From: an uncultured Candidatus Saccharibacteria bacterium
GTDB lineage: Bacteria > Patescibacteriota > Minisyncoccia > 2-02-FULL-40-12 > GWA2-44-9
Assembly (NCBI GenBank): GCA_964513645.1
Contig: CAZENF010000001.1
Span: 200,022-264,021 of the forward strand
DNA length: 64,000 bases
Direction: 5' to 3'
The notes beneath the pieces are model-generated. The model was not told the origin of the DNA. It did no database searches and was given only the letters and a program-made list of their open reading frames with translations. Positions 965-22,749 of this stretch are shown here, one piece after another (the stretch's first letter is position 1; each line of letters opens with the position of its first letter). The translations under genes were made by a program, and so were the position numbers.

Positions 965-1537
965 ATGTCTATCAAAAGTTCGATGCTCGAATCCATACAG
1001 ACCAAGATTCAGATCGCCTCAGACGATAAATTTTTGGCCGAAATTCAGAGAGTCGCCAACTATATGACTGCCTGCTTACGGAGCAACCGGAAGATACTCA
1101 TCGCCGGCAATGGCGGCTCGGCCGCGGACGCCCAGCATTTTGCCGCAGAACTTGCCGGACAATTCAAACATACACGCAAAGGCCTGCCGGTCATCGCCCT
1201 GACCACAAACGCATCCATCACCACCGCCATTGGCAATGATTTCGGTTATGAACATGTTTTTTCAAGGCAGGTTGAAGGTTTGGGCCGACAAGGAGATATG
1301 TTCGTCGGAATTTCGACCAGCGGGAACTCACAGAACCTCCTTCACGCACTCGAGGCGGCAAAAAAAGAAGGAATGATAACTGTCGGCCTGTTGGGAAAAA
1401 ACGGCGGTAAAATGAAGGATTTTTGCGACCTGAAACTTATCGTCCCTTCGGACAACACCCAACACATCCAAGAATCTCACATCGTGATAATTCACGAACT
1501 CTGTTCGATAATTGATAACGCTTTTAAACGCTCATAG
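965..1537 (+). CDS. gmhA: D-sedoheptulose-7-phosphate isomerase (phosphoheptose isomerase, SIS domain)
   Basis: 190 aa; ILIAGNGGSAADAQHFAAEL... and GISTSGNS SIS-domain motifs characteristic of GmhA. Confidence 0.9.
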   Translation: MSIKSSMLESIQTKIQIASDDKFLAEIQRVANYMTACLRSNRKILIAGNGGSAADAQHFAAELAGQFKHTRKGLPVIALTTNASITTAIGNDFGYEHVFSRQVEGLGRQGDMFVGISTSGNSQNLLHALEAAKKEGMITVGLLGKNGGKMKDFCDLKLIVPSDNTQHIQESHIVIIHELCSIIDNAFKRS

Positions 1538-1953: not shown

Positions 1954-3741
1954 TTGTTTAAATTCTTTCCTAAAATTTACAGAGCAATAGCCGTTTTCCG
2001 GGAAGCCTTCGGCGAATACAAATACAAGCTTCTGCTTATGACCAGCCTGGGTTTTATCGGCGGCCTTTTGGGCGGCGTCGGAATTGGCGCGATAATCCCC
2101 CTTTTCTCATTCATCTCTTCGAACGGTGAGGCCAATGACGCCATCTCGCTCGCAATCAAAAAAGGATTTTCTGTCGTTCATCTTCATTACAGCCTGACTT
2201 TGTTACTGGTATTGATGGGTATAATTTTTCTCGCCAAGGCGATATTTCTTTACATCGCCAGTTATATAAATTCAAAAGAGTCGGTTGAGTACGGAACTAA
2301 AATGAGGAAGATTCTGTTCGCGGAAACCATGAGAACGGACTGGTCATACCTCTTAAGCCAAAAGATAGGATACCTAACCTCTGTGCTGAATGACGATGTC
2401 CAGGGAGCATCAAGCATTATAATCGATATCAGCGGGTTCATTCTGACCTTAACCAGTTTGATAATGTACGGCGCGGTTGCCTTGAATATTTCAGCCCAAA
2501 TAACATTCCTGACCTTCGGCATCGGCCTGGTCTCGTTCTTTGCTTTGAAACCGCTTTACTATAAGGTCCGCCGGTCAGCCGATAAAAATTCTGAAACAGG
2601 TAAAATGGTCGCCCACCATGTAAATCAACAAATGATGGGTGCCAAGACGGTAAAATCCCTCCTCGCCGAAGAAAGCGCGATAGAAAAAAGCAATTACTAT
2701 TTCGATCGATGGCATGACCACCATCTGATTCAATATAAATACGGGATCATATTCTCGAATTTCTTAGAACCGCTGACTTTTTTTGTCATTATTCCTTTGT
2801 TCCTGATCTATTATCACCGGCCGGATTTTAACATCGCTTCTTTTGCCGCGATAATTTATCTGACCCAGAAAATGTTCAGCTTCATGCAGACCCTCCAGTC
2901 CCGTCTTAACAGCATCAACCAGAAGATACCAAGTCTGGTCAATGTCCTGAAATATAAGAACCAGGCCCGGAAACATTACGAATCTACCGGCGGTGATAAA
3001 CCTTTTGTTTTCAATTACGAAATAAATTTCGAGAATGTTTCATTCAAATATAATGAGCAGGTCCGGATTCTTGAAGGGCTTAATTTTAATATAAAAAAGG
3101 GTCAGACGATCGGATTGATAGGTCCTTCGGGCGCCGGCAAAACAACCGTTGTTGATATTTTTTTGAGATTCTTAAATCCGATCGGAGGAACTATAAAAGT
3201 CGATGGCACCGAACTTTCGGAAATAAATCTTCATGCCTGGAGAAAGCACATCGGTTATGTTTCTCAAGATATGTTCCTGGTCAATGACACGATAGAAAAT
3301 AATATCAAATTTTACGACGAATCATTCTCCCACGAAGAGGTTATTGAGGCCGCCAAAAAAGCTTATATATATGATTTTATAATCGAGCAGCCGGATAAAT
3401 TTGATTCTCTCGTCGGAGAACGCGGTCTTCAGCTTTCAGCCGGACAAAGACAAAGAATAGTTTTCGCCAGAATCCTTCTCCGGAAGCCGAAGATACTTGT
3501 TCTGGACGAAGCAACCAGCGCCCTCGACAATAAGTCCGAGGCGGCGATACAAAAGGCCGTCAATGAACTCGCCGGCAAAATAACGATATTCATGATCGCC
3601 CACCGCCTCTCAACCGTGACCAACACTGACAAGATACTTGTCTTGGACGACGGCAGAATAATCGAACAGGGCAAACCGGAAGAACTCCTAAAAGACAAAA
3701 ATTCCTACTTCTATAAAATCTCCAATATTAACCAGATATAA
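1954..3741 (+). CDS. ABC exporter, fused permease/ATPase half-transporter (MsbA/PglK-like lipid or lipid-linked-glycan flippase type)
   Basis: 595 aa; N-terminal 6-TM domain. Walker A GPSGAGKTT, ABC signature LSAGQRQRIVFARILL, Walker B ILVLDEATSALD. TTG start. Confidence 0.9.
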   Translation: MFKFFPKIYRAIAVFREAFGEYKYKLLLMTSLGFIGGLLGGVGIGAIIPLFSFISSNGEANDAISLAIKKGFSVVHLHYSLTLLLVLMGIIFLAKAIFLYIASYINSKESVEYGTKMRKILFAETMRTDWSYLLSQKIGYLTSVLNDDVQGASSIIIDISGFILTLTSLIMYGAVALNISAQITFLTFGIGLVSFFALKPLYYKVRRSADKNSETGKMVAHHVNQQMMGAKTVKSLLAEESAIEKSNYYFDRWHDHHLIQYKYGIIFSNFLEPLTFFVIIPLFLIYYHRPDFNIASFAAIIYLTQKMFSFMQTLQSRLNSINQKIPSLVNVLKYKNQARKHYESTGGDKPFVFNYEINFENVSFKYNEQVRILEGLNFNIKKGQTIGLIGPSGAGKTTVVDIFLRFLNPIGGTIKVDGTELSEINLHAWRKHIGYVSQDMFLVNDTIENNIKFYDESFSHEEVIEAAKKAYIYDFIIEQPDKFDSLVGERGLQLSAGQRQRIVFARILLRKPKILVLDEATSALDNKSEAAIQKAVNELAGKITIFMIAHRLSTVTNTDKILVLDDGRIIEQGKPEELLKDKNSYFYKISNINQI

Positions 3742-5708
3742 TGGGTTTTGATATAAATTTTTTGCTTGTCCTGATTTCCGCCCTCGGAATAGGGTTTATT
3801 TTCTCATTCGCCACTAAAGATGCGATATATTACGGGCAAAATACAGACAATGAACTGATGGTCTATGCCGCCGCCCAATCGGATAAATGGAAATGGTTCT
3901 CGGACCTTCACAAATACGCGCGCGGCAAAACCGGAATGAAAGACCTGACCGTAATTTTGATATCATTTTTTCAGAAAATCTTGAGGAATAAAGAAGCCGA
4001 GCATTCATACCTGACCTTGGGCGGATTTTCAAACAGTTTTTCGGCGATATTTATTTACTTAATAGCCAGCGCTTACTGGGGTCCCGGAGTCGGAATGTTC
4101 GTGTCGATCCTGTTCTTGACCTCGGTTTGGAACTGGCAAACGGCTTTATACGGCGGGCATGGCAATGTCGCAATGATGATATTTCTGGCCTCGGTATTTT
4201 TCCTTCAGCAATCGGATTCAGGAATGTTAATGAGTTCCTGGTGGTGGGTTTTCTGCTCGGGAGTGATATTTTGTTTTGCCCAGTTTGCTTCGGCTTCCTC
4301 GATAAAATATTCTCCGCTATATCTTGCCGCCGCCGCATTTCTTGGCAGCCCGGAACTGTTTCATAACGGGTACCGAATTGTAATTGATAAGATCGCTTCG
4401 GGCTCTTTTTTGACATTCAACCTGTCGCTTGTCTTCGGCTTCTTGTTCGTCCGGACAATAATACAATTAACCTACAAAAAAATCGTTTCAGATATGTATT
4501 ATAACCGGTCCGTCTCGTATCTTAATGGCATGATACATTCGAGAGACAAATTTCCGGTTGAACACTATCAGGAACATGCAAAAAGTAAGATCGGGCTCTA
4601 CACCAAGCTTACCTCATGTATACTCGTTTTGATATTTCTTTTGGTAAATTTTGCAGGCCTCGAAAATTCGCTTGCAATAATTACCGGATTTTTTACAGGA
4701 TTTCTCATTCTGACCCTGCCGGATATAAAAAAGAGTTTTAAATACTATTATAACTTCCTGCTCGAAACCCAAATCCGAAAAAAATCGCATTTCAAGGGTT
4801 ATGTGGAATTTTTCGCCAAAAGAGGGATAATTGTATCCCGCTATACTCAAGGCGCCGGTATAAAATGGGTTCCGAAGATGCTTTTCCGGATGATACCTGT
4901 TCATACGTTAATTTTTGGTTCAGCGATGATCGGCTCTCTAATTCTGGTCCTCATATCCTCGAGTCCGGCTCTTCAACTGGCAAATACTCTCGTAATACTT
5001 TTCATATCCCTTTCTCCCATAATCTGGGCCGAATTATCAAGGGCTCCCCAGCTTTCAAGAACCTATTCTCCAGGCCTTGTCGGTATATTAATATTCATAG
5101 GATATTTTTCCGCCAAAACCGAAATTTATCCTTTTTCCTACGCCTTGGGTTATCTGTTAATATCCGCCGCCATTATCTGGAATCTTTGGATATTTCTCTC
5201 GGATGTTTTTCCGGCGCGAATGGGTCCGGCCGAATTGGTAAAAACTTTGGACAGTTTGGGTATAAAAGAATTTTATACCTACAACACAACCTACAATGAC
5301 GCCTTTATCGGGGGTATTCCCGGGATGGCCACGTCCTCATATCTTCCTGAAAAGAATATCCTGCCGCCATATCGGGTCCATTACATAAATTCTGTCCGAG
5401 AAGTTAAGAATGGCTGGATAGTCATACCGGGAACCTCAAGCAAGGCGCTGACAATGAACACCTCCGAAGAAGCATTAAGAGAAGATCACTACGACAAAGA
5501 CCCGGTCCTGAATGAACTCATCGCGACCAGAGAAATAGAAAAAATTGCCGCCGCCAAATTTAAAACTATGGCCAACAGCCGGATATGGCCGATAGAAAGC
5601 GAGGTCACCGGGTTCCGGGACCTGATACTCCACGATATAAAAGACGAGGACCGCTACCGCGGTTATGCCTGGTTATTGCACAGCGGTAAATTAAGATTTA
5701 AAATTTAA
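3741..5708 (+). CDS. Large polytopic membrane protein of unknown function with a C-terminal soluble domain. Candidate glycan polymerase or GT-C-like enzyme.
   Basis: 655 aa; more than 10 hydrophobic segments and a roughly 150-aa hydrophilic C-terminus. Start overlaps the ABC stop (TAATG). No diagnostic motif recognised. Confidence 0.4.
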   Translation: MGFDINFLLVLISALGIGFIFSFATKDAIYYGQNTDNELMVYAAAQSDKWKWFSDLHKYARGKTGMKDLTVILISFFQKILRNKEAEHSYLTLGGFSNSFSAIFIYLIASAYWGPGVGMFVSILFLTSVWNWQTALYGGHGNVAMMIFLASVFFLQQSDSGMLMSSWWWVFCSGVIFCFAQFASASSIKYSPLYLAAAAFLGSPELFHNGYRIVIDKIASGSFLTFNLSLVFGFLFVRTIIQLTYKKIVSDMYYNRSVSYLNGMIHSRDKFPVEHYQEHAKSKIGLYTKLTSCILVLIFLLVNFAGLENSLAIITGFFTGFLILTLPDIKKSFKYYYNFLLETQIRKKSHFKGYVEFFAKRGIIVSRYTQGAGIKWVPKMLFRMIPVHTLIFGSAMIGSLILVLISSSPALQLANTLVILFISLSPIIWAELSRAPQLSRTYSPGLVGILIFIGYFSAKTEIYPFSYALGYLLISAAIIWNLWIFLSDVFPARMGPAELVKTLDSLGIKEFYTYNTTYNDAFIGGIPGMATSSYLPEKNILPPYRVHYINSVREVKNGWIVIPGTSSKALTMNTSEEALREDHYDKDPVLNELIATREIEKIAAAKFKTMANSRIWPIESEVTGFRDLILHDIKDEDRYRGYAWLLHSGKLRFKI

Positions 5709-5714: not shown

Positions 5715-6698
5715 ATGATAATTACCCGTACACCATTTAGAATATCTTTTTTCGGCGGAGGAACCGACTATCCCGGCTGGTACAAAGAGAACGGCGGAAC
5801 GGTTTTGTCGACCACAATAGATAAATACTGCTATATCAGCTGCCGGCCGCTGCCGCCGTTCTTTAAATACAAACACCGGATAGTTTATTCAAAAACGGAA
5901 AACGCCAAAGATACCAATAAGATAATCCATCCTTCGGTCCGGGAGTGCATTCGTTTTATAGACCTGGACCATGGCCTCGAAATACATCACGACGGAGACT
6001 TGCCGGCAAGATCCGGCCTCGGTTCAAGCTCTTCATTTACCGTCGGCATGATACACGCTCTTTACGGCCTCAAAGGAATGATAAAAAGCAAAAGAGACCT
6101 GGCTCTTGATGCGATCCACGTTGAGCAGGATCTGATAGGAGAAAACGTCGGCTCACAAGACCAGATAGCCGCGGCCTACGGAGGATTCAACAAGATAGAC
6201 CTAAGCGGCGCCCATGTGATATCGGTCCAGCCGGTTATAATGAGTCCGGAACGGTTAAACCATCTTCAGGACCATATGATGCTTTTCTTTACAGGATTAT
6301 CACGCAATGCTTCAGAAGTTGCCAAAACCCAGATAAAGAACATTCCTAAAACCAGAAACGAATTGACGGCCATGACCGCGATCGCAAATGAAGGTTTTTC
6401 TATCATTAAAAACCAGAAACCGGTTGAAGAATTCGGAAAACTACTTAAAGAGTCCTGGCAATACAAACGCAAATTATCCAAAAAAATAAGCAATGAAAAA
6501 ATAGACACCATTTATGCGACCGCGATGAAGGCGGGCGCTTTGGGTGGAAAATTATTGGGCGCCGGCGGAGGCGGGTTCATATTATTTTTTGCCCCGCCTG
6601 AAATACAACCCAAAATAAAAGAAAAGCTGAAGAAACTTCTTTGCGTCCCCTTCCGTTTTGAGAATCAGGGTAGTCAGATAATTTACTACAACCGCTAA
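5715..6698 (+). CDS. hddA: GHMP-family sugar kinase, D-glycero-alpha-D-manno-heptose-7-phosphate kinase (HddA/WcbL)-like
   Basis: 327 aa; N-terminal RISFFGGGTDYPGWY and PARSGLGSSSSF GHMP ATP-binding motif, C-terminal GAGGGGF. Confidence 0.75.
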   Translation: MIITRTPFRISFFGGGTDYPGWYKENGGTVLSTTIDKYCYISCRPLPPFFKYKHRIVYSKTENAKDTNKIIHPSVRECIRFIDLDHGLEIHHDGDLPARSGLGSSSSFTVGMIHALYGLKGMIKSKRDLALDAIHVEQDLIGENVGSQDQIAAAYGGFNKIDLSGAHVISVQPVIMSPERLNHLQDHMMLFFTGLSRNASEVAKTQIKNIPKTRNELTAMTAIANEGFSIIKNQKPVEEFGKLLKESWQYKRKLSKKISNEKIDTIYATAMKAGALGGKLLGAGGGGFILFFAPPEIQPKIKEKLKKLLCVPFRFENQGSQIIYYNR

Positions 6699-6775: not shown

Positions 6776-7378
6776 ATGCACCCGAGATACCAGCTTGGCC
6801 AGACCACTGAAGAACTGGAAGGCAAGATAGAAGTTTATGATACAACCCTGCCGGGAGTAAAAAAGATCAGAAGAAAAATTACCCATGACCACCGCGGACA
6901 TTACGGCGAGCTCTACAGTAAAAAGATCTACTTTGCCAACGGAGTCACGGTTGATTTTACCGAAGGCGAGCAGGACTGTTCCTGTTCCCGGAAAAATACA
7001 CTCCGCGGATTACACGGTGATTCAAGGACCTGGAAATTAATAACCTGCCTTTTTGGCAGATTTCATCTGGTAGTTCTGAACTACAACCCTGCTTCTGCCC
7101 TCTTCGGACGTTGGGAAGGATTCGATATGTCGGCCGAGGAAGGCTGGCAAATCCTCATCCCACCACGTCACTGCAACGGTCACCTTATCCTTTCGGATAT
7201 CGCACTTTTTCATTATAATCAGTCCGAATATTATTCGGGGCCCGAACTCCAGAACGTAATAAAATGGGACGATCCGAGATTTAACATTGACTGGCCGATC
7301 GAGAACAAATCAAAACTTCTACTTTCCCCCCGCGACAGCCAAGGCGCTTCCTATTCAGACCTTTCCGCCAAAAAATAA
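6776..7378 (+). CDS. RmlC-like cupin: nucleotide-sugar 3,5-epimerase (dTDP-4-dehydrorhamnose 3,5-epimerase family)
   Basis: 200 aa; RGLHGD...KLITCLFGRFHLVVLN...FGRWEGFDMSAEEGWQILIPPRHCNGHLILSD...HYNQSEYYSGPE follows the RmlC pattern (RGLH, KLV.V, FG.W, IP.G.AHGF, Y). Confidence 0.65.
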   Translation: MHPRYQLGQTTEELEGKIEVYDTTLPGVKKIRRKITHDHRGHYGELYSKKIYFANGVTVDFTEGEQDCSCSRKNTLRGLHGDSRTWKLITCLFGRFHLVVLNYNPASALFGRWEGFDMSAEEGWQILIPPRHCNGHLILSDIALFHYNQSEYYSGPELQNVIKWDDPRFNIDWPIENKSKLLLSPRDSQGASYSDLSAKK

Positions 7379-7906: not shown

Positions 7907-7996
7907 TTTTCATATCATAACATTTTTTTTATTCTTGACAATAAGCGATAAATAAGCGATGATTTGCCATCAATGTTCTTTAAAATAAGGAGTAAA

Positions 7997-8572
7997 GTGG
8001 CTATCCAGATCCCCAAGAAGATCGGTAAGGAAAAGGTTGTCGGCCAGGTTTACGGCAAATCTCTTATCAGCCAGAACTATATCATGCCCCAGACCGGTCG
8101 AATAGAAGAATATGGAAAATTCAGAGGCAAACACCTTTCAGCTTTTATTCTTCCTGTCACCGAAGACAATATGATTGTTGCTATCAGACAATACCGGATG
8201 GGACCGGATGAAATAGTCCTTGAACTACCCGGCGGAAATATCAAACCGGACGAACCACCTGATATGGGAGCACGAAGAGAACTTCAGGAAGAAACCGGCT
8301 ATTTGGCCGGCACCATGGTATCTTTGTCGGGATGCAAGAAGGTATGCCTCGACCCGGCAAGTTCAGATATATATTTTTATCCTTTTCTGGCCTTGAACTG
8401 CAAGTACACCGACAGAAGGAATCTTGATGTGAACGAAGACATCGAGATAGTCCTAAAGTCATGGCTGGAATGGTTGGATGCCGTTTACAAGATCAGCTCT
8501 AACAGTTCCTACTCCATGCTGACAACCCTGCTCGCACTGCCCCACGTCCAGAAATTGGAAGCGTTCCGATGA
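7997..8572 (+). CDS. NUDIX hydrolase
   Basis: Nudix box GARRELQEETGY. The ORF is open from 7964, but AAGGAG (7987-7992) followed by an in-frame GTG at 7997 is the more likely start. Confidence 0.75.
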   Translation: MAIQIPKKIGKEKVVGQVYGKSLISQNYIMPQTGRIEEYGKFRGKHLSAFILPVTEDNMIVAIRQYRMGPDEIVLELPGGNIKPDEPPDMGARRELQEETGYLAGTMVSLSGCKKVCLDPASSDIYFYPFLALNCKYTDRRNLDVNEDIEIVLKSWLEWLDAVYKISSNSSYSMLTTLLALPHVQKLEAFR

Positions 8573-9534
8573 TAACCACGGAAATTTCACTTGAACTTTA
8601 CGGACGGATGTATCGGATCCGTAAATCCGAAGAAAAGATCATCGAAGAATATTTTAACGATGCCATGAAAACTCCAATGCATATGTCGATGGGTTCCGAA
8701 GCGATCGCAGCCGGTGTCTGCACCGCCTTAGACGACGCTGCCCAGATCTGGGGAACTTATCGGAGTCACGCGACATATCTTGCTCGGACCAAAGACGTGA
8801 ACGGTTTTTTCACGGAACTTTACGGCAAGGTTACTGGACCGGGAGGAGGCAAAGCAGGTTCGATGCATTTAGCCGACCCGGAACAAGGTTTGGTTATGGC
8901 TTCGGCTGTGGTTGCGACAAACATCTCACCGGCCTTAGGCGCCGCTTTTGCCAACAAAATTCTCAAAAATCATGATATCGCTGTTACCTTTTTTGGTGAC
9001 GGCGCCGTTGATGAAGGTGTTTTCTGGGAAAGCATCAATCTCGCTTCTGTCTTGAGTTTGCCAGTCCTGTTCGTCTACGAAGACAACGGTCTGGCTATTC
9101 ATACCTCGGCCAAAAGCCGGCATGGTTATGACAATATCGGAAATCTGATAAAACAATATGCCAACTGGCATTATCTCGAATACGGTGGAACAGACGTTGA
9201 AGAAATATTTCAATTGACCGCAAATGCTTATTTCGGCCAATTGATGCGCGGACCGGTTTTCTTGTCACTTAAATACTACCGCTATCTTGAACATGTCGGT
9301 GTCAATGAAGATTTTAAGGCCGGTTATCGAAGCCGCGAAGAATTTGAAAAGTGGCAAAAAATTGACCCTCTGACCGTTCAAAAGAACCGATTGACCGACC
9401 TTGGTCTTGCCAAAGAGGTTTCACGATTGGAGACAGAGATATTGAATCAGATAGAAGAGGCCGTTACCTATGCAAAAAGCAGCCCTTATCCCGAACCCGG
9501 AGCTTTGTACGAAGGAGTGTACGATGACGAATAA
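8569..9534 (+). CDS. TPP-dependent 2-oxoacid dehydrogenase E1 component, alpha subunit (PDH/acetoin-DH E1-alpha-like)
   Basis: 321 aa; TPP-binding GDGAVDEGVFWESINLA...LPVLFVYEDNGLAI. ATGA overlap with the upstream stop. Confidence 0.8.
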   Translation: MITTEISLELYGRMYRIRKSEEKIIEEYFNDAMKTPMHMSMGSEAIAAGVCTALDDAAQIWGTYRSHATYLARTKDVNGFFTELYGKVTGPGGGKAGSMHLADPEQGLVMASAVVATNISPALGAAFANKILKNHDIAVTFFGDGAVDEGVFWESINLASVLSLPVLFVYEDNGLAIHTSAKSRHGYDNIGNLIKQYANWHYLEYGGTDVEEIFQLTANAYFGQLMRGPVFLSLKYYRYLEHVGVNEDFKAGYRSREEFEKWQKIDPLTVQKNRLTDLGLAKEVSRLETEILNQIEEAVTYAKSSPYPEPGALYEGVYDDE

Positions 9535-10573
9535 CAGAGTTATCTCCTATGAAAAAGCCCTGAACGAAGCCATCAGTCAAGAAATGGCGGCTGATGAAAG
9601 AGTTTTTGTATACGGCCTCGATGTTGACGACCACAAACGGATATTCGGAACAACCGTAGGTTTGGTGCAAAAATTCGGTCCCGAAAGATGTTTCAGCACT
9701 CCCTTGTCTGAAGAGTCTCTGATGGGATTAGGCATCGGTGCCGCAGCTTCGGGCTTAAGACCGATAAACCTACACATCCGGATAGAGTTTTTGCTTTTGG
9801 CCCTGAATCAACTTATAAATATCGGCTCATCCCTCCGTTACGGAAGTAACGGAAAACTTTCAACTCCGATGGTTATAATCGGTATTATCGGCCGAGGCTG
9901 GGGACAAGGTTTCCAGCATTCAAAAAGCCTTCAGTCATTTTTTGCCCATATTCCGGGATTAAAAGTGATAATGCCCACTACCCCTTACGATATAAAAGGC
10001 ATGATGACATCGGCGATACAGGACAACAACATCGTCGTTTGTCTCCTTCACCGCTGGCTTTACTGGATAGAAGGCCATGTTCCGGAAACACAGTACAAAG
10101 TTCCGATAGGCATGAGCCGTATTCTGCGCGAAGGTTCCGACATAACCATTGTCGCTACATCCTGGATGAACATCGAAGCACATGATGCGGCCAATGTCCT
10201 GGCCAAAAGAAATGTCAGCGTCGAGATTATCGACGCACGGACAATTTCGCCTCTTGATTACAGCATGATAGTTCATTCGGTCAACCAGACCGGCCGGTGC
10301 ATCATCGCAGACTATGACTGGCTCAACTGCGGCTTCAGCGCCGAGGTTACAGCCAGAGTTTCAGAGCAATGCTTCGGTAAGCTCAAACTTCCGGTCGCCC
10401 GGATAGGATTTGCCGAGACACCCTGCCCGACGACCAGACCCCTTGAGAACATGTTCTATCCTGACGCCAAATCGATAATCAGAAAAGCCGAAAGAATGCT
10501 CGGTCTTTCTCCTGCCGATCTGTCCGAAGAGAAATTCCACACCTGGGAAAACAAATTCAAAGGACCTTTTTAA
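9524..10573 (+). CDS. TPP-dependent 2-oxoacid dehydrogenase E1 component, beta subunit (transketolase-like pyrimidine-binding and C-terminal domains)
   Basis: MTNNRVISYEKALNEAISQEMAADERVFVYG...TPLSEESLMGLGIGAAASGLRPI... The ORF is open from 9470, but the ATG at 9524 overlaps the alpha stop (ATGACGAATAA) and fits the canonical E1-beta N-terminus. Confidence 0.8.
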   Translation: MTNNRVISYEKALNEAISQEMAADERVFVYGLDVDDHKRIFGTTVGLVQKFGPERCFSTPLSEESLMGLGIGAAASGLRPINLHIRIEFLLLALNQLINIGSSLRYGSNGKLSTPMVIIGIIGRGWGQGFQHSKSLQSFFAHIPGLKVIMPTTPYDIKGMMTSAIQDNNIVVCLLHRWLYWIEGHVPETQYKVPIGMSRILREGSDITIVATSWMNIEAHDAANVLAKRNVSVEIIDARTISPLDYSMIVHSVNQTGRCIIADYDWLNCGFSAEVTARVSEQCFGKLKLPVARIGFAETPCPTTRPLENMFYPDAKSIIRKAERMLGLSPADLSEEKFHTWENKFKGPF

Positions 10574-10600
10574 ACCGCTTTTCAAAAGCGGTTTTTATTT
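10573..10600 (+). terminator. Rho-independent terminator after the E1 alpha/beta pair
   Basis: AACCGCTTTTCAAAAGCGGTT palindrome followed by TTTATTT. Confidence 0.6.
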
Positions 10601-10672: not shown

Positions 10673-12379
10673 TTGATAATTTTAGGGATGCTGACCTATT
10701 CTCACGATACGTCCGCCGCCATCTTAAAAGACGGCCGCGTATTGTTTGCCGCCGAAGAAGAAAGGTTCAACGGCGAAAAACATACCACAAAATTTCCGCA
10801 TAATGCGATCAAGGCATGCCTTGATTTCGCAAAGATCACGCTCGATGATGTGGACGTCATCTGCGTTCCCAACATCCCGATAATGAGCGTCCGTCTGCGC
10901 TTCATCCGGAACTGGTACCGCCATTTTCCCAAAGTAACGCCGAGGATGTTAGCTGAATCAAAATGGATAGACAGATTCATTTATATTGAACAGGATATCA
11001 GAGAAAATCTGAATTTCCAAAAAAAAATATTTTTCTGTCATCACCACCTCGCCCACATGGCAAGTGCTTATTACCTTTCCGGATTTTCGTCGAGCGCGCT
11101 TTTGAGCATCGACGGAGTTGGAGACATTGAAAGTCTGACAACCGGAGTTGCCGAAAACAACAAACTGAAGCTTTTCAAGAAAGACAGCGTCGAATGGCCT
11201 CACTCGATGGGTGTTCTATACACTTGTATCACGGATTATCTTGGCTTTAAGCGCCATTGCGATGAAGGCAAGGTCATGGGTCTTGCCCCTTATGGCAACA
11301 TCGAAACTTTTAGAAAGATATTCGAGAAAGTTGTTTTACTCGGTCCGCGCGGCAGATTTGCCCTCGACTATAAGTATTTCGATTATCCGTACATTCAAGG
11401 TTCAACAATGTCGGATGTTTTCAAAGAACTGTGCGGTCCGTCGAGACAAAAAGACGAACCGATCACCCAAAGGCACATGGATATCGCCGCGGCGGCGCAA
11501 TACATGACCGAGAAGGTCATGGTTAATTCAGCCCGGTATCTTCAAGAAAAAACCGGACAAACAAATCTTTCGATGGCCGGCGGCGTAGCGCTTAACTGTG
11601 TCGCTAACGGAAAAATCCTCACCGAAACACCTTTTAAGAATATCTTCATCCAGCCCGCGGCAAATGATTCGGGAGCTTCTCTCGGGGCCGCCCTTTATTA
11701 TCATTATCTGAAAAACAAGAACGCGGAACGTTACCGCCTGAACAATGCTTATCTGGGAAACGGATATGATAACACGGAAGTATTCAAAGCATTAATTTAT
11801 GCTAAAAATAAAGTTAATTTTGTAACCGGACCAAAAGATAAAATGAACCATTATATAGCACGGTTCCTGGCTAGCGGAAAAATAGTCGCCTGGTTCAACG
11901 GACGATTCGAATACGGCCCGAGAGCCCTCGGCAATCGCTCTATCATTACGGCACCGTTCCCGGCAGAAATGAAGGATATTCTAAACTCGCGAGTTAAACA
12001 CCGTGAATCATTCCGGCCTTTTGCTCCGGTTGTTCTCGAAGAAGACTGCGGTGAATATTTCGACAACATTCATATTTCACCCTATATGCTTCTGACCTAT
12101 GGTGTCAGACCTGAAAAAAAACACCAGGTTCCCGCAATCACCCACGTTGACGGAACGGCCAGAGTCCAGACAGTAAATGAAGAACAAAATCCTGACCTTT
12201 ATAACCTTATCAAAGAGTTCAAAACCCAAACCGGAATAGGTATCATTCTGAACACCTCATTCAATGTCATGGGTCAGCCGATAATCAATACCCCCGAAGA
12301 AGCCATTGAATGCTTCCTGGGTACGGATATCGACTATTTGGTCCTGAACGGAGAATTCCTTGTCTCGAAAGCTGCTTAG
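10673..12379 (+). CDS. NodU/CmcH-family O-carbamoyltransferase
   Basis: 568 aa; N-terminal ILGMLTYSHDTSAAILKDGRVLFAAEEERFN (Kae1/YgjD-like fold) and a C-terminal carbamoyltransferase domain. AAGGAGG Shine-Dalgarno before the TTG start. Confidence 0.85.
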   Translation: MIILGMLTYSHDTSAAILKDGRVLFAAEEERFNGEKHTTKFPHNAIKACLDFAKITLDDVDVICVPNIPIMSVRLRFIRNWYRHFPKVTPRMLAESKWIDRFIYIEQDIRENLNFQKKIFFCHHHLAHMASAYYLSGFSSSALLSIDGVGDIESLTTGVAENNKLKLFKKDSVEWPHSMGVLYTCITDYLGFKRHCDEGKVMGLAPYGNIETFRKIFEKVVLLGPRGRFALDYKYFDYPYIQGSTMSDVFKELCGPSRQKDEPITQRHMDIAAAAQYMTEKVMVNSARYLQEKTGQTNLSMAGGVALNCVANGKILTETPFKNIFIQPAANDSGASLGAALYYHYLKNKNAERYRLNNAYLGNGYDNTEVFKALIYAKNKVNFVTGPKDKMNHYIARFLASGKIVAWFNGRFEYGPRALGNRSIITAPFPAEMKDILNSRVKHRESFRPFAPVVLEEDCGEYFDNIHISPYMLLTYGVRPEKKHQVPAITHVDGTARVQTVNEEQNPDLYNLIKEFKTQTGIGIILNTSFNVMGQPIINTPEEAIECFLGTDIDYLVLNGEFLVSKAA

Positions 12380-12398
12380 ATATAAGCAGCTTTTTTTA
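12369..12398 (+). terminator. Rho-independent terminator
   Basis: AAGCTGCTTA-GATA-TAAGCAGCTT: 10-bp stem followed by TTTTTTT. The stop codon lies within the stem. Confidence 0.65.
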
Positions 12399-12484: not shown

Positions 12485-13660
12485 GTGAACCATCCTTTCA
12501 AGTATCCCCTTGCTTCTGACACAATAGATGACGCTAACCTTGAAGAACTAATTTCCTGGTTCAAAACAAAACCCCAGCTGACCATGGGTGAAGTGACGAA
12601 AAAATACGAGAAAGTATGGTCTGAATGGGTTGGCAGAAGATCCGTTTTTGTTAATTCCGGTTCATCCGCTAATTTAGCGATGTATTCGGTCTTGGATTGC
12701 TCAAGCCAGCTGATGAACAAGAAAGTCATCGTTCCAAGCAATGGCTGGGCTACGACCATTGATCCCGCGATCCAGCTTGGATTTCAACCTTTGATGTGCG
12801 AAGCTGATCCTGACACATTCGGTCTCGACCTCGACCATCTCGAAGAATTGCTTGAAGAACACCGGCCGGCTACGGTTATGCTCGTTCATGCGCTTGGCGT
12901 TCCCCATAAAATGGATGAACTAATGGCGCTTAAAGAAAAATATGAATTCATCCTTCTGGAAGACGCCTGTGCTTCGGTCGGTTCAGCTTACAAAGGCAAG
13001 CGGGTGGGAACTTTCGGAGATATGTCGAGCTTTTCGACCTATTTCGGCCACCAATCCTCAAGCGTCGAAGGCGGCTTTATTTTTACCGACAACAAAGAGT
13101 TCTATAACATCCTCCGAATGATAAGAAGCCACGGCTGGGCTAAAGACCTCGATGAAGAAACCTACAACAACCATTTCAGCAAATACAACATCGACCCCGC
13201 TCATCGGCCTTTTGCATTTTTTTACCCGGGATATAACATCCGACCGACAGATATTCAGGCAAAGATAGGTCTTGGGCAATTTGAAAAATTCGAATGGGTG
13301 AGAAAGAACCGCATCCGGAATCATGAACTCTATAAAACCCTGCTCCGAAATGATTTCGGCGTTCAAAAGTATTCATCCGATGAAGTTGAGGTTTGCAGCA
13401 TCAGTTTTGCGATCTTGGCCAAAGATCCCGAAGAACGGGATAAGGTTGTGCATGCCCTGAATAACAACAGTATCGAGACCAGACTTTATTCGGCGGCCAA
13501 TCTTGGCCTGCACCCTTTCTGGTATGACAATTTCGGAAAATTCCTGGCACCAAACGCAACTCGGTTATACAGCTGCGGCTTGTTCCTGCCGAACCATCCT
13601 GATCTTGAAAGGTCAGACATAGAATTCATTTCAAAAGTTGCACTGGGGGCAAAAAAATGA
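12485..13660 (+). CDS. DegT/DnrJ/EryC1 family enzyme with His replacing the PLP-lysine: PMP-dependent sugar 3-dehydratase-like (ColD/E1 (RfbH/DdhC) type)
   Basis: 391 aa. SFSTYFGHQSSSVEGG aligns gap-free with FAFYPNKQMTTGEGG (45620 ORF) and [16 protein letters not shown] (56839 ORF), placing H where both paralogs have the Schiff-base K. N-terminus LASDTIDDANLEEL..TMGEVTKKYEKVWSEW.G...V.VNSGSSANL resembles RfbH/ColD. AGGGAG Shine-Dalgarno before the GTG start. Confidence 0.65.
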   Translation: MNHPFKYPLASDTIDDANLEELISWFKTKPQLTMGEVTKKYEKVWSEWVGRRSVFVNSGSSANLAMYSVLDCSSQLMNKKVIVPSNGWATTIDPAIQLGFQPLMCEADPDTFGLDLDHLEELLEEHRPATVMLVHALGVPHKMDELMALKEKYEFILLEDACASVGSAYKGKRVGTFGDMSSFSTYFGHQSSSVEGGFIFTDNKEFYNILRMIRSHGWAKDLDEETYNNHFSKYNIDPAHRPFAFFYPGYNIRPTDIQAKIGLGQFEKFEWVRKNRIRNHELYKTLLRNDFGVQKYSSDEVEVCSISFAILAKDPEERDKVVHALNNNSIETRLYSAANLGLHPFWYDNFGKFLAPNATRLYSCGLFLPNHPDLERSDIEFISKVALGAKK

Positions 13661-14607
13661 GAAAGATCAAGGTCCTGATCACCGGAGGCGCGGGGTATAT
13701 AGGTTCAGTATTGGTTCCTAAATTGTTAGAAACCGGCATTTACAAAATAGCGGTCATCGACAACTTCATGTACCAAGAACCTTCCCTGGTCAATGTTTCC
13801 GACAATCCCGATCTGACCATTCTAAATTCCGATATCAGGGATTATAAACTGGTTAATTTTATAGCCCCAAAATCGGACTATATTTTACCATTGGCCTGCC
13901 TGACCGGTGCACCCATTTGCGACCGTTATCCCAATCAGGCCAGAGAAGTAATAGTGGACGCATTAAAAAATATGATAAGTTCGCTAAAACCCAACCAGAG
14001 ACTGATCTATCCTACAACCAACAGCGGCTACGGGATCGGTAGCGACGATATCTATTGCGATGAGAATAGTCCGCTTAACCCGATATCACATTACGGCCGT
14101 TTGAAAGTCGAAGCCGAAAAAATGATATTGGAAAGAAAAGGAATCGCTCTTAGACTGGCCACCGTTTTCGGTGTCAGCCCGAGAATGAGATTAGACCTCC
14201 TTGTGAACGACATGACCTTCGAGGCGGTTAAGAAGGGTCATATAAAACTTTATGAACCGCATTTCAAAAGAAACTTCATCCACGTCAGAGATATTGCCGA
14301 CGCTTTTGTTTTTTGTCTGAACAATTTTGAAAAAATGCAAGGACAAGTATACAACGTCGGCCTCAGCGAAGCGAATATAAGCAAAATGGACCTGTGCCTG
14401 ATGATAAAAGAGCGGGTACCGAAACTCGAAATAACAACCGATGATTCAAAGAAGGATCCGGACCAGCGCAACTATATTGTCAATAACGAAAAGATCGAAG
14501 CTCTCGGTTTTAAAGCGAAGGTTTCCCTTAAAACCGGAATTCAGGAACTGATAAAATATTACGAGATGCTCGATTATTCCCAAAGACAAAGATTTTCGAA
14601 CATTTAA
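13657..14607 (+). CDS. NAD-dependent epimerase/dehydratase (extended SDR)
   Basis: 316 aa; VLITGGAGYIGS Rossmann motif. Paralog of 34051..34980 (shared VIDNxM, SPRxRLDLxxND, TFIHVxD). Confidence 0.8.
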   Translation: MRKIKVLITGGAGYIGSVLVPKLLETGIYKIAVIDNFMYQEPSLVNVSDNPDLTILNSDIRDYKLVNFIAPKSDYILPLACLTGAPICDRYPNQAREVIVDALKNMISSLKPNQRLIYPTTNSGYGIGSDDIYCDENSPLNPISHYGRLKVEAEKMILERKGIALRLATVFGVSPRMRLDLLVNDMTFEAVKKGHIKLYEPHFKRNFIHVRDIADAFVFCLNNFEKMQGQVYNVGLSEANISKMDLCLMIKERVPKLEITTDDSKKDPDQRNYIVNNEKIEALGFKAKVSLKTGIQELIKYYEMLDYSQRQRFSNI

Positions 14608-14609: not shown

Positions 14610-14636
14610 AAGCCGCCTTAAGGCGGCTTTTTGTTT
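14610..14636 (+). terminator. Rho-independent terminator
   Basis: AGCCGCC-TTAA-GGCGGCT followed by TTTTGTTTG. Confidence 0.6.
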
Positions 14637-15146: not shown

Positions 15147-17222
15147 GTGAGCAAAAAAATCACTGTCGGCCTGTGCCAGATAAATGCCAGCTTCTCGGGG
15201 GTAAGCTACCTGCCCTACTCGGTAGGACTCCTTGAAGCCCACGCCCGTAAAAACCTTCCTGAAATTGATAAATACGAGTTCATGCCTCCGATCTTCGCGA
15301 GAGAATCGGTAGATTCGGCGGTTAAAAAACTTCTGCCGTGTGACGTGGTTTATATCAGTCTTTACGTCTGGAACAACAATCTGGCCCTGATGATTGCCAA
15401 AGAATTAAAAAAGCTCAAGCCCGAGGTTGTCATTGTGGTAGGCGGACCCCATGTCCCCGATAAATACAAATCTCACACCCAGAACAAACAAATAACCCCG
15501 GTTTTTATCGGAATAAAAAATTCAAAATCAACTCGAACCCCGCCTGAACTTTTAAGAACAGAGACCTATCTGCGCGAAAATCCTTATATCGATATTGCCG
15601 TCCACGGTGAAGGCGAAAGAGTTTCAACAATTCTTTTGCAGAACCTTCACGGTGACTGGAGTAAAATACCGTCCATCAGCTACCTGGATAAAGAGGGTTA
15701 TATTGTACAGACCGAAAAAATTTCGCGTCTCAAAGAGCTCGATGAGATACCTTCTCCTTATCTTGAAGGCACCTTCGACTCCCTTATCAAGTCCAACCCT
15801 GACACTAAATGGATAACCGTCTGGGAAACAAACCGCGGCTGTCCTTTCTCCTGCACATTCTGCGACTGGGGTTCCGCGATCGCCTCAAAGGTGTATAAAT
15901 GGGAACTTGAGCGGGCCTACCGCGAAATGGATTGGTTCGCCGCCCATCAGATAGAATTTATTTTTCTGGCTGATGCAAATTTCGGCATCCTGAACCGCGA
16001 CATTGATATCGCAAAATACTGCGCCAGGACCAGAGAATTAACTGGCTATCCGAAAGCGATCACGGTCTCGAACACCAAGAACGCGACCGACCGTTCATAT
16101 CAGGTCCAGAAAATATTTGCCGAAGCCGGCCTTGCCGCCGGAGCTTCGCTCTCAATGCAGTCTCTTGACCCTGGGACTTTGAAAGATATCAAAAGGGACA
16201 ACATCAGTCTCGACTCTTACAACGAGATCCAACAAAGAATGAAACAGGACGGCGTCGCCTCTTTCACAGACATTGTCATCGGTCTGCCCGGTGAAACATA
16301 CGAAACTTTCGCCAATGGTGTCGATCAACTTATCCGGAACGGTCTCCATGACCGGATCCTATTCTATGACCTGACCATTCTGCCCAACGCCGAAATGGCC
16401 GACCCGGGATACCGAAAAAAGTTCGGAATGGAAACCGTTAACGCCAAGACGATAAACATCCACGGCTCACGCAAAGAAATTCAGAATGACGTTCCTGAAT
16501 TCCAGGAAGTCGTCGTCGCAACGGCCGCAATGCCTCGCCCTGACTGGGCAAGGGTCAAAGCTTTCAGCTGGACGGCTGCTTTCCTTCATTTCGACAAGAT
16601 ACTTCAGATACCGCTGGTCCTGATGCATGAGCTGGCCGGCATAAAATACCGTGAGCTTATCGAATTACTTTCCGAAGCAAAATTCGGAAACCCCCGAAAA
16701 TTCCCGACCCTGAATAAGATACATGGCTTTTTCATTGAAAAAGCACGTTCTATCCAGGCAGGCGGCGAGGAGTTCTGCCATTCCAAGGAACACCTCGACA
16801 TGTGGTGGCCGTCAGACGAGAAAATACTCATCGAGCTGGCAACCAATGACGAACTTCCGGGTTTTTACGAAGAAGCATATTTTGCTCTGAAAAATATTCT
16901 GAAAATATCAGGCAAGACCGAATTCGACAATGCTCTTAGAGAATCAGTGATACTTAACGAAGCCCTGCTTAAACTCCCGTTCCTGAACGGCACAGTTAAA
17001 GTAAAGCTTGAACATAACATCTGGGAATTTTACAAGGCCGCGGTCAGGTCGGAACCGATACCGCTTGTAAAACAAAGATCGGTTATCAGTATCAACCGTG
17101 ACATTGAAAAATGGAATTCATGGAACGACTGGTGCCGATTCGTTGTATGGTACGGCAGCAAACAGAGCGCATATCTGTACGGAAATAAATCGGTCCGGGT
17201 ACAAATTGCCGGACATTTCTAA
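15147..17222 (+). CDS. Cobalamin-binding (class B) radical SAM enzyme with a roughly 300-aa C-terminal extension
   Basis: 691 aa; radical SAM CxxxCxxC as ETNRGCPFSCTFCDWG, preceded by a B12-binding-type N-terminal Rossmann region (VVIVVGGPHV). Paralog of 24610..26760. Confidence 0.8.
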   Translation: MSKKITVGLCQINASFSGVSYLPYSVGLLEAHARKNLPEIDKYEFMPPIFARESVDSAVKKLLPCDVVYISLYVWNNNLALMIAKELKKLKPEVVIVVGGPHVPDKYKSHTQNKQITPVFIGIKNSKSTRTPPELLRTETYLRENPYIDIAVHGEGERVSTILLQNLHGDWSKIPSISYLDKEGYIVQTEKISRLKELDEIPSPYLEGTFDSLIKSNPDTKWITVWETNRGCPFSCTFCDWGSAIASKVYKWELERAYREMDWFAAHQIEFIFLADANFGILNRDIDIAKYCARTRELTGYPKAITVSNTKNATDRSYQVQKIFAEAGLAAGASLSMQSLDPGTLKDIKRDNISLDSYNEIQQRMKQDGVASFTDIVIGLPGETYETFANGVDQLIRNGLHDRILFYDLTILPNAEMADPGYRKKFGMETVNAKTINIHGSRKEIQNDVPEFQEVVVATAAMPRPDWARVKAFSWTAAFLHFDKILQIPLVLMHELAGIKYRELIELLSEAKFGNPRKFPTLNKIHGFFIEKARSIQAGGEEFCHSKEHLDMWWPSDEKILIELATNDELPGFYEEAYFALKNILKISGKTEFDNALRESVILNEALLKLPFLNGTVKVKLEHNIWEFYKAAVRSEPIPLVKQRSVISINRDIEKWNSWNDWCRFVVWYGSKQSAYLYGNKSVRVQIAGHF

Positions 17223-19471: not shown

Positions 19472-19600
19472 GATCCGTCATTTAAAAGATGCTGACCCAT
19501 ATTACAGCGCCTTAGGAACTAAATCAAATCATGTTTGACGAACCAATTTTTTGATAGTATAATCTGTCCAGTTATTTTTACAAAAAGGATATATCAATTC

Positions 19601-22626: not shown

Positions 22627-22691
22627 GTTGCAAAGCCTCTTTGGTGAACTAGGATATTAATAGCATAAATTTTAGAAAAATCAACCTTAAA

Positions 22692-22719
22692 TTGACATAC
22701 CTGTCAAAAAATATATAAT
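22692..22719 (+). promoter_or_regulatory. Sigma70-type promoter TTGACA-N16-TATAAT, with the palindrome TTGACATACCTGTCAA overlapping the -35
   Basis: TTGACA 22692-22697, TATAAT 22714-22719, about 30 bp upstream of the 22750 SDR gene. The inverted repeat TTGACA/TGTCAA spans 22692-22707. Confidence 0.5.
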
Positions 22720-22749
22720 AATTCAAGCTTTTTTGAAAACGAGGTATAC

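Follow-up and report, generated by a model that had tools for sequence, protein, structure and literature searches.

A stand-alone E1 alpha/beta pair in a Saccharibacteria surface-glycan island: gene context points to C2 branching of a GDP-heptose

Enzymes built like the E1 component of 2-oxoacid dehydrogenases, with thiamine diphosphate (ThDP) as cofactor, are already known to add two-carbon (C2) branches to sugars. For AviB1/B2 and AlmDI/DII the evidence comes from gene knockouts, with feeding experiments in addition for aldgamycin, and the role of Plm8/9 (= Pau11/12) was deduced from the side chains of paulomycin derivatives obtained through engineered pathways (PMC12247030, PMC4802897, PMC4753412). 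KbDH-alpha/beta, from kibdelomycin synthesis, has been characterised in vitro (PMC12247030) and ~120 biosynthetic clusters are said to encode an E1-type branching pair, all for C2 branches (PMC12247030, PMC4802897, PMC4753412). The same logic is followed in lipopolysaccharide synthesis by YerE, ErwE and MyGE: a pyridoxamine 5'-phosphate (PMP)-dependent 3-dehydratase generates a 4-keto-3-deoxy sugar, a ThDP enzyme adds an acyl group at C4 and the branch is then reduced (PMC9306805). YerE in Gram-negative bacteria has been contrasted with the E1 pairs in Gram-positive bacteria (PMC4753412). Here we describe an E1 alpha/beta pair encoded within 64,000 nucleotides of DNA, hereafter the window, from an uncultured Candidatus Saccharibacteria bacterium (assembly GCA_964513645.1, contig CAZENF010000001.1, positions 200,022 to 264,021 of the forward strand). 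A preliminary description of this DNA had named AviB1/AviB2 as the precedent for such a pair in glycan biosynthesis; the precedent is real, and the in vitro work on KbDH-alpha/beta can now be added to it (PMC12247030, PMC4753412, PMC4802897). The pair is very likely a ThDP enzyme that acts on its own in a GDP-sugar pathway, and not a component of a dehydrogenase complex. More specifically, it probably adds a pyruvate-derived C2 branch to C4 of a GDP-4-keto-heptose destined for a surface glycan; the sequences establish the domains, the retained catalytic residues, the distance from E2-linked E1 enzymes, the gene linkage and what the neighbours are, whereas the donor, acceptor, position and product are inferred. 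This interpretation is supported by gene context, not by biochemistry.

As for AviB1/B2, Pau11/12, AlmDI/DII and KbDH, the alpha and beta subunits are encoded by separate genes, without E2 or E3, in a deoxysugar cluster. The neighbours also resemble those of the actinomycete branching pairs in that they form keto-sugars, in the presence nearby of a candidate ketoreductase (compare Pau7, the aldo-keto reductase that reduces the acetyl branch in paulomycin synthesis; PMC4753412) and in the predicted addition of a pyruvate-derived C2 unit to a ketone. The substrate here is, however, likely a GDP-heptose derivative, whereas the paulomycin deoxyhexose is drawn as dTDP- or nucleoside diphosphate (NDP)-linked, the product would be used for a surface glycan and not for an antibiotic, and the beta subunit here has a C-terminal tail that ends ...FKGPF. 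The hosts of AviB-type pairs are actinomycetes, whereas those of the pairs described here are bacteria of the candidate phyla radiation (CPR), Omnitrophota, Planctomycetota, Chloroflexota, Proteobacteria and Firmicutes, and archaea; the likeness considered here is one of gene context and predicted reaction. Among the 120 matches listed for a protein search seeded with the Azospirillum homologue there was no named actinomycete protein. YerE-type enzymes have an unrelated fold, a single acetolactate-synthase-like chain of TPP_enzyme_N/M/C domains (YerE is a flavoprotein), and act on CDP-hexoses, whereas the enzyme described here is an E1 alpha/beta pair. The present clade blurs the contrast between YerE in Gram-negatives and E1 pairs in Gram-positives. 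E1-type C2 branching is already known; the differences here are the predicted GDP-heptose substrate class, the biological setting in a surface glycan, the range of taxa and the signature tail of beta. The literature searched assigns E1-type branching pairs to antibiotic pathways of Gram-positives, and no link between an E1 pair and GDP-heptose surface glycans was found in it, the cluster survey of Krug et al. 2024 lying outside that search. The idea that the cluster, with its heptose pathway, 3-dehydratase, C2 branching and B12-radical-SAM methylation, might produce erwiniose or caryophyllose was discarded: both are 3,6-dideoxyhexoses with long acyl branches, which are installed by the YerE-type enzymes ErwE and MyGE from C4-C8 keto acids (PMC9306805).

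The two subunits of the window's enzyme are separate chains (Table 1) that match Pfam families far above the respective cut-offs, alpha at 153.5 bits for E1_dh (cut-off 22), and beta at 91.8 for Transket_pyr (27) and 107.3 for Transketolase_C (25.9). Translation of E1 beta is assigned to the ATG at 9524, rather than to an upstream ATG at 9470, giving a product identical to that of the NCBI gene call, and the start of E1 beta overlaps the end of E1 alpha (stop codon at 9532-9534) by 11 nt. These Pfam matches and this overlap bear out the earlier account of a translationally coupled pair, and both subunits are intact. The E1 alpha ATG (8569) is, in turn, overlapped by the stop codon (8570-8572) of a NUDIX hydrolase gene and, given the overlaps, the promoter-like site upstream and the terminator-like hairpin after E1 beta, the NUDIX, E1 alpha and E1 beta genes appear to form one three-gene unit. 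The best PDB matches of the NUDIX protein are nucleoside-diphosphate-sugar and ADP-ribose pyrophosphatases, and in ~10 related loci a NUDIX gene is located just 5' of the pair alone or of a kinase gene together with the pair. Downstream of the unit, the 3-dehydratase ("DegT") gene and a gene encoding a short-chain dehydrogenase/reductase (SDR) form another overlapping pair, with hairpins comparable to that following E1 beta located 3' of the SDR gene and of the intervening carbamoyltransferase gene. The carbamoyltransferase gene, which therefore has a hairpin on each side and has a homologue in only 2 of 82 related loci, is a window-specific insertion between E1 beta and the 3-dehydratase gene that splits the module.

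The residues expected of the E1 superfamily are present. Alpha contains the ThDP/Mg motif GDGAVDEG...YEDNG at residues 143-174 (G143-D144-G145...N173; GDG-X26-(D)N) and its His242, within YRYLEH, is aligned with the catalytic YRYHGH His of human E1 alpha. Beta retains the cofactor-activating Glu of TPLSE and His132 of QHS, and the motif and catalytic columns align with those of the human, T. thermophilus and P. aerophilum E1 enzymes. In a characterised E1, the beta His (H128beta) participates in the addition of pyruvate to ThDP and the alpha His (H271alpha) in the second half-reaction (PMC2663715). As its catalytic residues are retained, decarboxylation of a 2-oxoacid on ThDP is still to be expected of this enzyme. 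The alpha2beta2 E1 components of the pyruvate dehydrogenase (PDH), branched-chain and acetoin complexes resemble the pair in fold, ThDP/Mg motif, activating Glu and the two catalytic His, but the pair differs from them in having no E2 or E3 gene nearby in any relative, in its scores below the family cut-offs, in forming a separate clade and in its beta tail. Against TIGR03182, alpha scores 222 bits (curated cut-off 393.85), and beta scores 284 bits against PRK09212 (cut-off 321) and 264 bits against PRK11892 (cut-off 454). All three scores fall short and, by this measure, the pair does not count as a PDH E1 equivalog. The solved and annotated E1 chains used for comparison share 34-38% identity with alpha and 38-45% with beta, and the nearest annotated Aco/PDH-type proteins found in a tblastn search of plasmids are at most 38% identical.

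The absence of E2 and E3 from the whole window, as originally claimed, held in both searches made. There was no tblastn match to E. coli AceF or Lpd at E<=1e-5, and no lipoyl, 2-oxoacid_dh or Pyr_redox_2 family was detected in the ~50 window open reading frames (ORFs) scanned with Pfam, which are all but some short ORFs and the final two genes; the scanned ORFs have glycan-related functions only. The comparison was extended to 81 non-redundant related loci, each taken with 10 kb of sequence on either side, in which ORFs were called and clustered, and recurrent clusters annotated. An AceF or Lpd homologue was present in none of these 81 loci (tblastn). The positive controls were a Rhizobium plasmid on which an E1 pair is followed by E2 and a Clostridioides difficile plasmid on which a pair is followed by E2 and lpdA. 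An E1 pair without E2/E3 in a sugar-nucleotide cluster is present in the window, in the 77 of the 81 loci that have at least one sugar-nucleotide family, and in Azospirillum, Niveispirillum and Solidesulfovibrio magneticus.

A further difference from the complex-associated enzymes is a clade-specific tail of 23 residues at the C-terminus of E1 beta (residues 327-349), which ends F-K-G-P-F. The tail is kept in 70 clade members, with F345, G347, P348 and F349 each conserved at 97-99%, and the Azospirillum and Niveispirillum E1 beta subunits have it too; it was not found in the S. magneticus beta subunit, in Thermus AcoB, in E2-linked beta subunits or in any solved E1 beta chain. The window's E1 beta runs on past its C-terminal domain, with 23 residues more than the solved PDH E1 beta chains of G. 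stearothermophilus, T. thermophilus and human. The G. stearothermophilus chain ends 2 residues past the position of query residue 326. We conjecture, from the sequences, that the tail may mark a lost E2 docking site or a new contact with the substrate.

The genes that recur around related pairs are those of GDP-heptose metabolism. E1 beta is directly 3' of E1 alpha in 75 of the 81 loci, the remaining 6 being cut by contig ends. The commonest neighbour is an extended SDR: 61 of the 81 loci encode it somewhere, and in 48 of 76 its gene is on the same strand and <=1.5 kb 5' of alpha. A typical upstream SDR scores 285 bits against the Campylobacter jejuni GDP-D-glycero-D-manno-heptose 4,6-dehydratase (7us5), to which it is ~48% identical, 204 bits against Rmd and ~130 bits against GDP-mannose dehydratases. 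Among the other recurrent partners, an HddA-like GHMP kinase is encoded in 39 of the 81 loci, a nucleotidyltransferase in 22, GmhA in 10 and a GmhB-like phosphatase in 9. GDP-fucose-synthase-like reductases occur in 55 loci, RmlC-fold epimerases in 33, a classical SDR in 27 and an aldo-keto reductase in 21. Methyltransferases and enzymes of the B12-binding radical S-adenosylmethionine (radical SAM) type also recur, with a KedN5-like B12-radical-SAM family in 13 of the 81 loci. Enzymes that form keto-sugars are thus co-encoded with the pair, as the 4,6-dehydratase upstream in the 48 of 76 loci and as a dehydrogenase plus a 3-dehydratase in the window. In the closest relative of the window's pair (65% identity), as in the window, genes for an ABC transporter, a membrane protein and a kinase precede, in this order, those for E1 alpha, E1 beta, the 3-dehydratase and the dehydrogenase, and the order from E1 alpha to the dehydrogenase is retained in other close relatives (61-64%). 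Homologues of the C. jejuni GDP-heptose toolkit (Cj1427, the DdahA 4,6-dehydratase, the HS:5 C3-dehydratase, C3/C5 epimerases and C4 reductases; PMC10680097) adjoin these pairs. The enzymes that PMC10680097 lists for heptose modification in C. jejuni include no ThDP enzyme, and an E1 pair would add C-branched heptoses to that repertoire.

The two genes downstream of the carbamoyltransferase gene in the window bear on the likely acceptor. The 3-dehydratase is of the ColD type and its His, in place of the Lys of aminotransferases, is aligned with ColD His188, a column fixed by the H188N mutant structure 3b8x. The same column has His in 17 of the 22 members of the DegT cluster in the related loci and in the Azospirillum and S. 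magneticus proteins; the five members with Lys are ordinary aminotransferases located elsewhere in their loci. The adjacent SDR is 49% identical (149/304) to PDB entry 6vo6_A (315.6 bits, E 3e-93), which was identified as Cj1427 because its C-terminal RAFKMMKV is the translated reverse complement of a Cj1427 primer in PMC3546167, and is 48-50% identical to the SDRs that adjoin the E1 pairs of S. magneticus, Azospirillum thermophilum and Azospirillum lipoferum. The families previously assigned to the pair's neighbours (NUDIX, carbamoyltransferase, His-for-Lys DegT, SDR) all agree with the Pfam matches and alignments, but the label "SDR epimerase" has to be replaced, this protein being a homologue of the Cj1427-type C4-dehydrogenase. 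In vitro, Cj1427 together with a pyridoxal 5'-phosphate (PLP)/glutamate-dependent C3-dehydratase from C. jejuni yields GDP-D-glycero-3-deoxy-4-keto-heptose (PMC10680097). As one of the two genes is Cj1427-like and the other ColD-like, they should therefore suffice for synthesis of a 4-keto-3-deoxy nucleotide heptose, the heptose counterpart of CDP-4-keto-3,6-dideoxyglucose, which is the YerE substrate in yersiniose synthesis (PMC9306805). GDP-3-deoxy-4-keto-heptose, if produced by these two predicted enzymes, is a plausible acceptor ketone for the E1 pair. The proposal that the acceptor is a keto-sugar nucleotide consequently stands, although it is most likely a GDP-heptose derivative and not a dTDP- or CDP-hexose.

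Relatives of the pair are numerous and dispersed. A search of 5.8 billion proteins returned hundreds at 50-65% identity, the best match among GTDB species representatives being 63-64% identical, and scanning one genome per species with the alpha clade motifs MKTPMHM and YYRYLEHV identified at least 169 species with confirmed relatives. The bacterial hosts include Saccharibacteria, Yanofskybacteria, Microgenomates, Omnitrophota, Planctomycetota, Chloroflexota, Nitrospirota, Desulfobacterota, Acidobacteriota, Verrucomicrobiota, Elusimicrobia, Bacteroidetes, Proteobacteria and Heliobacterium mobile, and the archaeal hosts Nanoarchaeota and Thermoplasmatales. In a neighbour-joining (NJ) tree of concatenated alpha and beta sequences (666 columns, 100 bootstraps), the core clade has a support of 100, a support of 99 when A. 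thermophilum is included, and of 100 with both A. thermophilum and S. magneticus, and these are set apart from Thermus AcoAB and two E2-linked pairs. Of the clustering check suggested earlier, the comparison with E2-linked E1 enzymes places the pair with other sugar-cluster pairs, within a tree that has a small outgroup.

Pairs in cultured bacteria, with ~36% alpha identity, retain the same partner genes. In Azospirillum thermophilum the E1 alpha and E1 beta genes are accompanied by those for a His-type DegT and for an SDR that shares 49% identity with that of the window, with a NUDIX gene ~3 kb upstream, and the order in A. lipoferum 4B is SDR, E1 alpha, E1 beta, DegT. In Niveispirillum lacus, the NUDIX, E1 alpha, E1 beta and DegT genes are within a Wzz/Wzy/Wzx polysaccharide locus that also encodes an initiating transferase and glycosyltransferases. 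Plasmid pDMC1 of S. magneticus has radical SAM, NUDIX, kinase, E1 alpha, E1 beta, GDP-fucose synthase and His-type DegT genes, followed by an SDR gene whose product is 48% identical to that of the window and a nucleotidyltransferase gene and, further along, by genes for a PMT-type glycosyltransferase, an L-2-hydroxyglutarate oxidase (at 22383-23585 of locus L084) and a SIS protein. Cj1427 recycles its NADH with alpha-ketoglutarate, releasing L-2-hydroxyglutarate (PMC10680097), and because of this the pDMC1 oxidase looks like a dedicated recycling step. A search for genes similar to that of S. magneticus found no L-2-hydroxyglutarate oxidase in the window or in the other related loci.

In the mechanism that we propose, the two subunits make up an alpha2beta2 ThDP enzyme with the E1 fold that stands alone and would function as a carboligase on a nucleotide sugar. 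In the window, the Cj1427-like SDR would oxidise the heptose at C4 and the ColD-like enzyme would remove the 3-OH, giving GDP-3-deoxy-4-keto-heptose; in most relatives, the ketone would instead be produced by the GDP-heptose 4,6-dehydratase encoded directly upstream. Pyruvate would be decarboxylated on ThDP by E1 alpha/beta, with the Glu of TPLSE activating the cofactor and beta His132 aiding pyruvate addition. With no lipoyl acceptor available, the hydroxyethylidene-ThDP carbanion would attack the C4 carbonyl, generating a 4-C-acetyl tertiary alcohol, and the acetyl group could then be reduced to a 1-hydroxyethyl branch by one of two candidate reductases of the island, a classical SDR or an aldo-keto reductase. 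The carbamoyltransferase, B12-radical-SAM C-methylation and epimerases would tailor the sugar, and glycosyltransferases and a PMT-type enzyme presumably install it in the surface glycan. The earlier suggestion of a stand-alone sugar-branching role gains support from the sub-cut-off family scores, the tree grouping, the lack of E2/E3 in the 81 loci and the keto-sugar-forming neighbours.

Several observations weigh against this proposal. The function assigned to the clade members derives entirely from their sequences and gene context, and the NJ tree has just three non-sugar comparators (Thermus AcoAB and the two E2-linked pairs). We know of no natural glycan with a 4-C-branched heptose. The GHMP kinase of the window has HddA as its best NCBIfam match, but at 151 bits, far below the cut-off of 600, and tblastn with representatives from related loci found no HddC-type nucleotidyltransferase/guanylyltransferase and no GmhB-type phosphatase in the window. 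The window's Gmd-family gene is 19 kb from the pair, and its product is ambiguous between Rmd-like and dehydratase-like. Sixteen of the 81 loci have neither the dehydratase nor the dehydrogenase within reach, although several of these are short contigs, and a split transketolase, a second ThDP enzyme, is also encoded in the island.

Even so, C2 branching of a 4-keto heptose is the most likely function because the clade sits among GDP-heptose genes and never beside E2/E3. The alternative that survives best, possible but not likely, retains the sugar pathway and has the pair catalyse ThDP chemistry other than C2 addition at C4. The donor could be hydroxypyruvate or 2-oxobutyrate, the attack could be at C3 after ketoisomerisation, a sugar aldehyde could be extended in a DXP (1-deoxyxylulose 5-phosphate)-synthase-like reaction, or a longer branch could be built jointly with the split transketolase. 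A split transketolase is encoded in the window (19535-21315) and in 20 of the 81 loci, a YerE/acetolactate-synthase-type enzyme is encoded in 9, and E1-type branching at C3 of the sugar exists in aldgamycin and kibdelomycin synthesis (PMC12247030). With a split transketolase in the island, its ThDP chemistry may exceed a single C2 addition. Split transketolases have been proposed, but not proven, to carry out hydroxyacetyl branching in miharamycin and amipurimycin synthesis, and have been reported only from Streptomyces (PMC12247030); that of the island is like these, but belongs to a ThDP family different from that of the E1 pair. The characterised E1-type branching enzymes, however, appear to accept only pyruvate and to install only C2 branches (PMC12247030), those enzymes whose genes show the tightest linkage to the pair form a C4 ketone, and no ketoisomerase was recognised beside it. 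An extension of the proposal, which we consider doubtful, is that the E1 pair, the split transketolase, sometimes a YerE-like enzyme, and B12-radical-SAM C-methylases, recurrently encoded together around a GDP-4-keto-heptose core, jointly build undescribed higher-carbon, multiply C-branched heptose derivatives (C9 and beyond) as cell-surface decoration in numerous phyla without cultured members, CPR bacteria and DPANN archaea among them, the beta tail being an adaptation that frees the E1 for GDP-sugars.

It is very unlikely that the pair acts by itself as a 2-oxoacid decarboxylase or acyloin synthase, providing a small non-sugar aldehyde, acetoin-like or acyl unit as a later substituent of the glycan, or that it decarboxylates a 2-keto-3-deoxy sugar acid produced by the nonulosonic-acid genes of the island. 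The E1-fold Ao:DCPIP oxidoreductase does catalyse carboligations on small ketones (PMC12247030) and NeuB-type genes are present at 40-48 kb of the window, but the relatives are linked to enzymes that form GDP-4-keto-heptoses, not to NeuB-type genes, and genes for an acyl carrier, CoA ligase or acyltransferase are not consistently adjacent. Least credible of all is an ordinary catabolic E1 acting on pyruvate, acetoin or a branched-chain 2-oxoacid with its E2 and E3 encoded elsewhere in the genome: the top Pfam, NCBIfam and PDB matches are indeed PDH and branched-chain E1 proteins, both His required for reductive acylation are kept, relatives are labelled 'acetoin dehydrogenase' or 'pyruvate dehydrogenase E1' in their sources and the E2/E3 search of the 304 kb source contig covered the window, but the pair does not reach the curated cut-offs for PDH E1, E2/E3 are missing from 81 loci across >15 phyla whereas real complexes keep E2 adjacent, the synteny with GDP-sugar enzymes is constant, the stop/start overlap is with a NUDIX gene in a glycan island, and the conserved beta tail is located where an E2-binding E1 beta has a free C-terminus.

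If C2 branching of GDP-heptoses by these pairs is confirmed, E1-type C-branching of sugars would not be a speciality of actinomycete antibiotic synthesis but widespread in GDP-heptose surface-glycan synthesis, in at least 169 species, many of which are known from metagenomes alone. It predicts 4-C-acetyl or 4-C-(1-hydroxyethyl) derivatives of 3-deoxy- or 6-deoxy-heptoses, of which, to our knowledge, there is no report. Such sugars could be sought in culturable carriers, namely Azospirillum lipoferum 4B, Niveispirillum lacus, Solidesulfovibrio magneticus RS-1 and Heliobacterium mobile DSM 6151, and, as the 3-deoxy and 6-deoxy forms of GDP-4-keto-heptose have already been made enzymatically in the C. 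jejuni work, the experiment with the enzyme is feasible. Biocatalysis would gain stand-alone carboligases that form tertiary alcohols, and reconstructions of metabolism from CPR and other small genomes would be freed of a routine mis-annotation, that of these pairs as pyruvate or acetoin dehydrogenase. The clade is large, mis-annotated and readily testable.

Table 1. Features of the window, in positions of the 64,000-nucleotide stretch
Feature	Position	Strand	Remarks
GmhA, sedoheptulose-7-phosphate isomerase (entry into heptose synthesis)	965-1537	+	TIGR00441, 212.8 bits (cut-off 209.45 passed)
Polytopic membrane protein	3741-5708	+	655 aa; no Pfam match
GHMP kinase, HddA-like, candidate heptose-7-P 1-kinase	5715-6698	+	GHMP_kinases_N and _C
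RmlC-fold C3/C5 epimerase of nucleotide-4-keto-sugars	6776-7378	+	dTDP_sugar_isom, E 3e-35
Promoter-like site 5' of NUDIX gene	7935-7963
NUDIX hydrolase, first gene of NUDIX-E1 alpha-E1 beta unit	7964-8572	+	Pfam NUDIX
E1 alpha-type ThDP-binding subunit	8569-9534	+	321 aa; Pfam E1_dh, E 8e-45, positions 2-299 of 300
ThDP/Mg motif of E1 alpha	8995-9090
E1 beta-type subunit, pyrimidine-binding and C-terminal domains	9524-10573	+	349 aa; Transket_pyr and Transketolase_C
C-terminal tail of E1 beta	10502-10570	+	clade-specific
Terminator-like hairpin directly 3' of E1 beta	10572-10594	+	10-bp stem, then T-run
O-carbamoyltransferase, NodU/CmcH type	10673-12379	+	Carbam_trans_N and _C
Hairpin 3' of carbamoyltransferase gene	12367-12394
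ColD-type PLP/PMP-dependent nucleotide-4-keto-sugar 3-dehydratase ("DegT")	12485-13660	+	best PDB match ColD (2gms), 183.5 bits
Cj1427-type GDP-heptose C4-dehydrogenase homologue (SDR)	13657-14607	+	coupled translationally to 3-dehydratase
Hairpin 3' of SDR gene	14610-14629
B12-binding radical SAM, KedN5-family C-methyltransferase-like, tailoring candidate	15147-17222	+	NF033712, 255.7 bits (below cut-off 700)
ORF without Pfam family	17307-17879
ORF without Pfam family	17840-18814
Split transketolase, abutting N- and C-terminal halves	19535-20407 and 20407-21315	+
ORF without Pfam family	21316-22155
Classical SDR, candidate for acetyl-branch reduction	22750-23550	+	adh_short
Aldo-keto reductase, candidate for acetyl-branch reduction	23560-24516	+	Aldo_ket_red
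B12-binding radical SAM	24610-26760	+
Gmd/Rmd-family SDR	29250-30266	+	2pk3 Rmd 154 bits; 7us5 GDP-heptose 4,6-dehydratase 144 bits
GDP-fucose-synthase-like SDR	30263-31222	+	NF047922 GDP-L-fucose synthase, 134 bits (below cut-off)
ORF without Pfam family	31255-32379
HisF-HisH fusion-like amidotransferase (nonulosonic)	37200-38765	+
ORF without Pfam family	38776-40053
Cytidylyltransferase (nonulosonic)	40028-40762	+
NeuB (nonulosonic)	41775-42836	+
NeuC-like 2-epimerase (nonulosonic)	42829-43947	+
ATP-grasp enzyme (nonulosonic)		+
Aminotransferase (nonulosonic)	45620-46747	+
PseB/LegB-like dehydratase (nonulosonic)	46740-47756	+
ORF without Pfam family	53779-54726	-
PMT_2-type lipid-linked glycosyltransferase	55424-56776	-
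B12-binding radical SAM	58057-59565	+

The remaining genes of the island (Table 1) are consistent with glycan synthesis. The RmlC-fold epimerase has PDB matches to RmlC (~85 bits) and to C. jejuni GDP-4-keto-heptose 3,5-epimerases (~79 bits), and the two SDRs encoded at 29250-31222 are candidates for a second GDP-sugar branch of the island. Two of the three B12-binding radical SAM proteins are KedN5-family-like, which suggests C-methylation of sugars. A second pathway, at 37200-48728 on the plus strand, is for a nonulosonic acid of the legionaminic or pseudaminic type.

In related loci, the split transketolase pair is often directly 3' of E1 beta and, in four, a methyltransferase is fused to the C-terminal half of the transketolase (cluster c43, e.g. 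L060:12912-14855). The YerE/acetolactate-synthase-fold gene (cluster c21, e.g. L029:14029-15717) was not found in the window; in the 9 related loci that have it, among them L007, L008, L013, L014, L029, L034, L035 and L038, it is beside the E1 pair and a split transketolase, so that up to three types of ThDP carboligase are encoded in one sugar cluster.

Six island ORFs (190-425 aa) have no Pfam family. Homologues of the first two, at 17307-17879 and 17840-18814, were each found in one related locus, and of that at 21316-22155 in none, the other three ORFs being outside this comparison. The large polytopic membrane protein follows an ATP-binding cassette (ABC) transporter, and the pairing of these two with the E1 module is kept in the closest relatives (L001, L003 and L004). 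The PMT_2-type glycosyltransferase has a counterpart in the S. magneticus cluster, and it and the polytopic protein are possible installers of the modified sugar.

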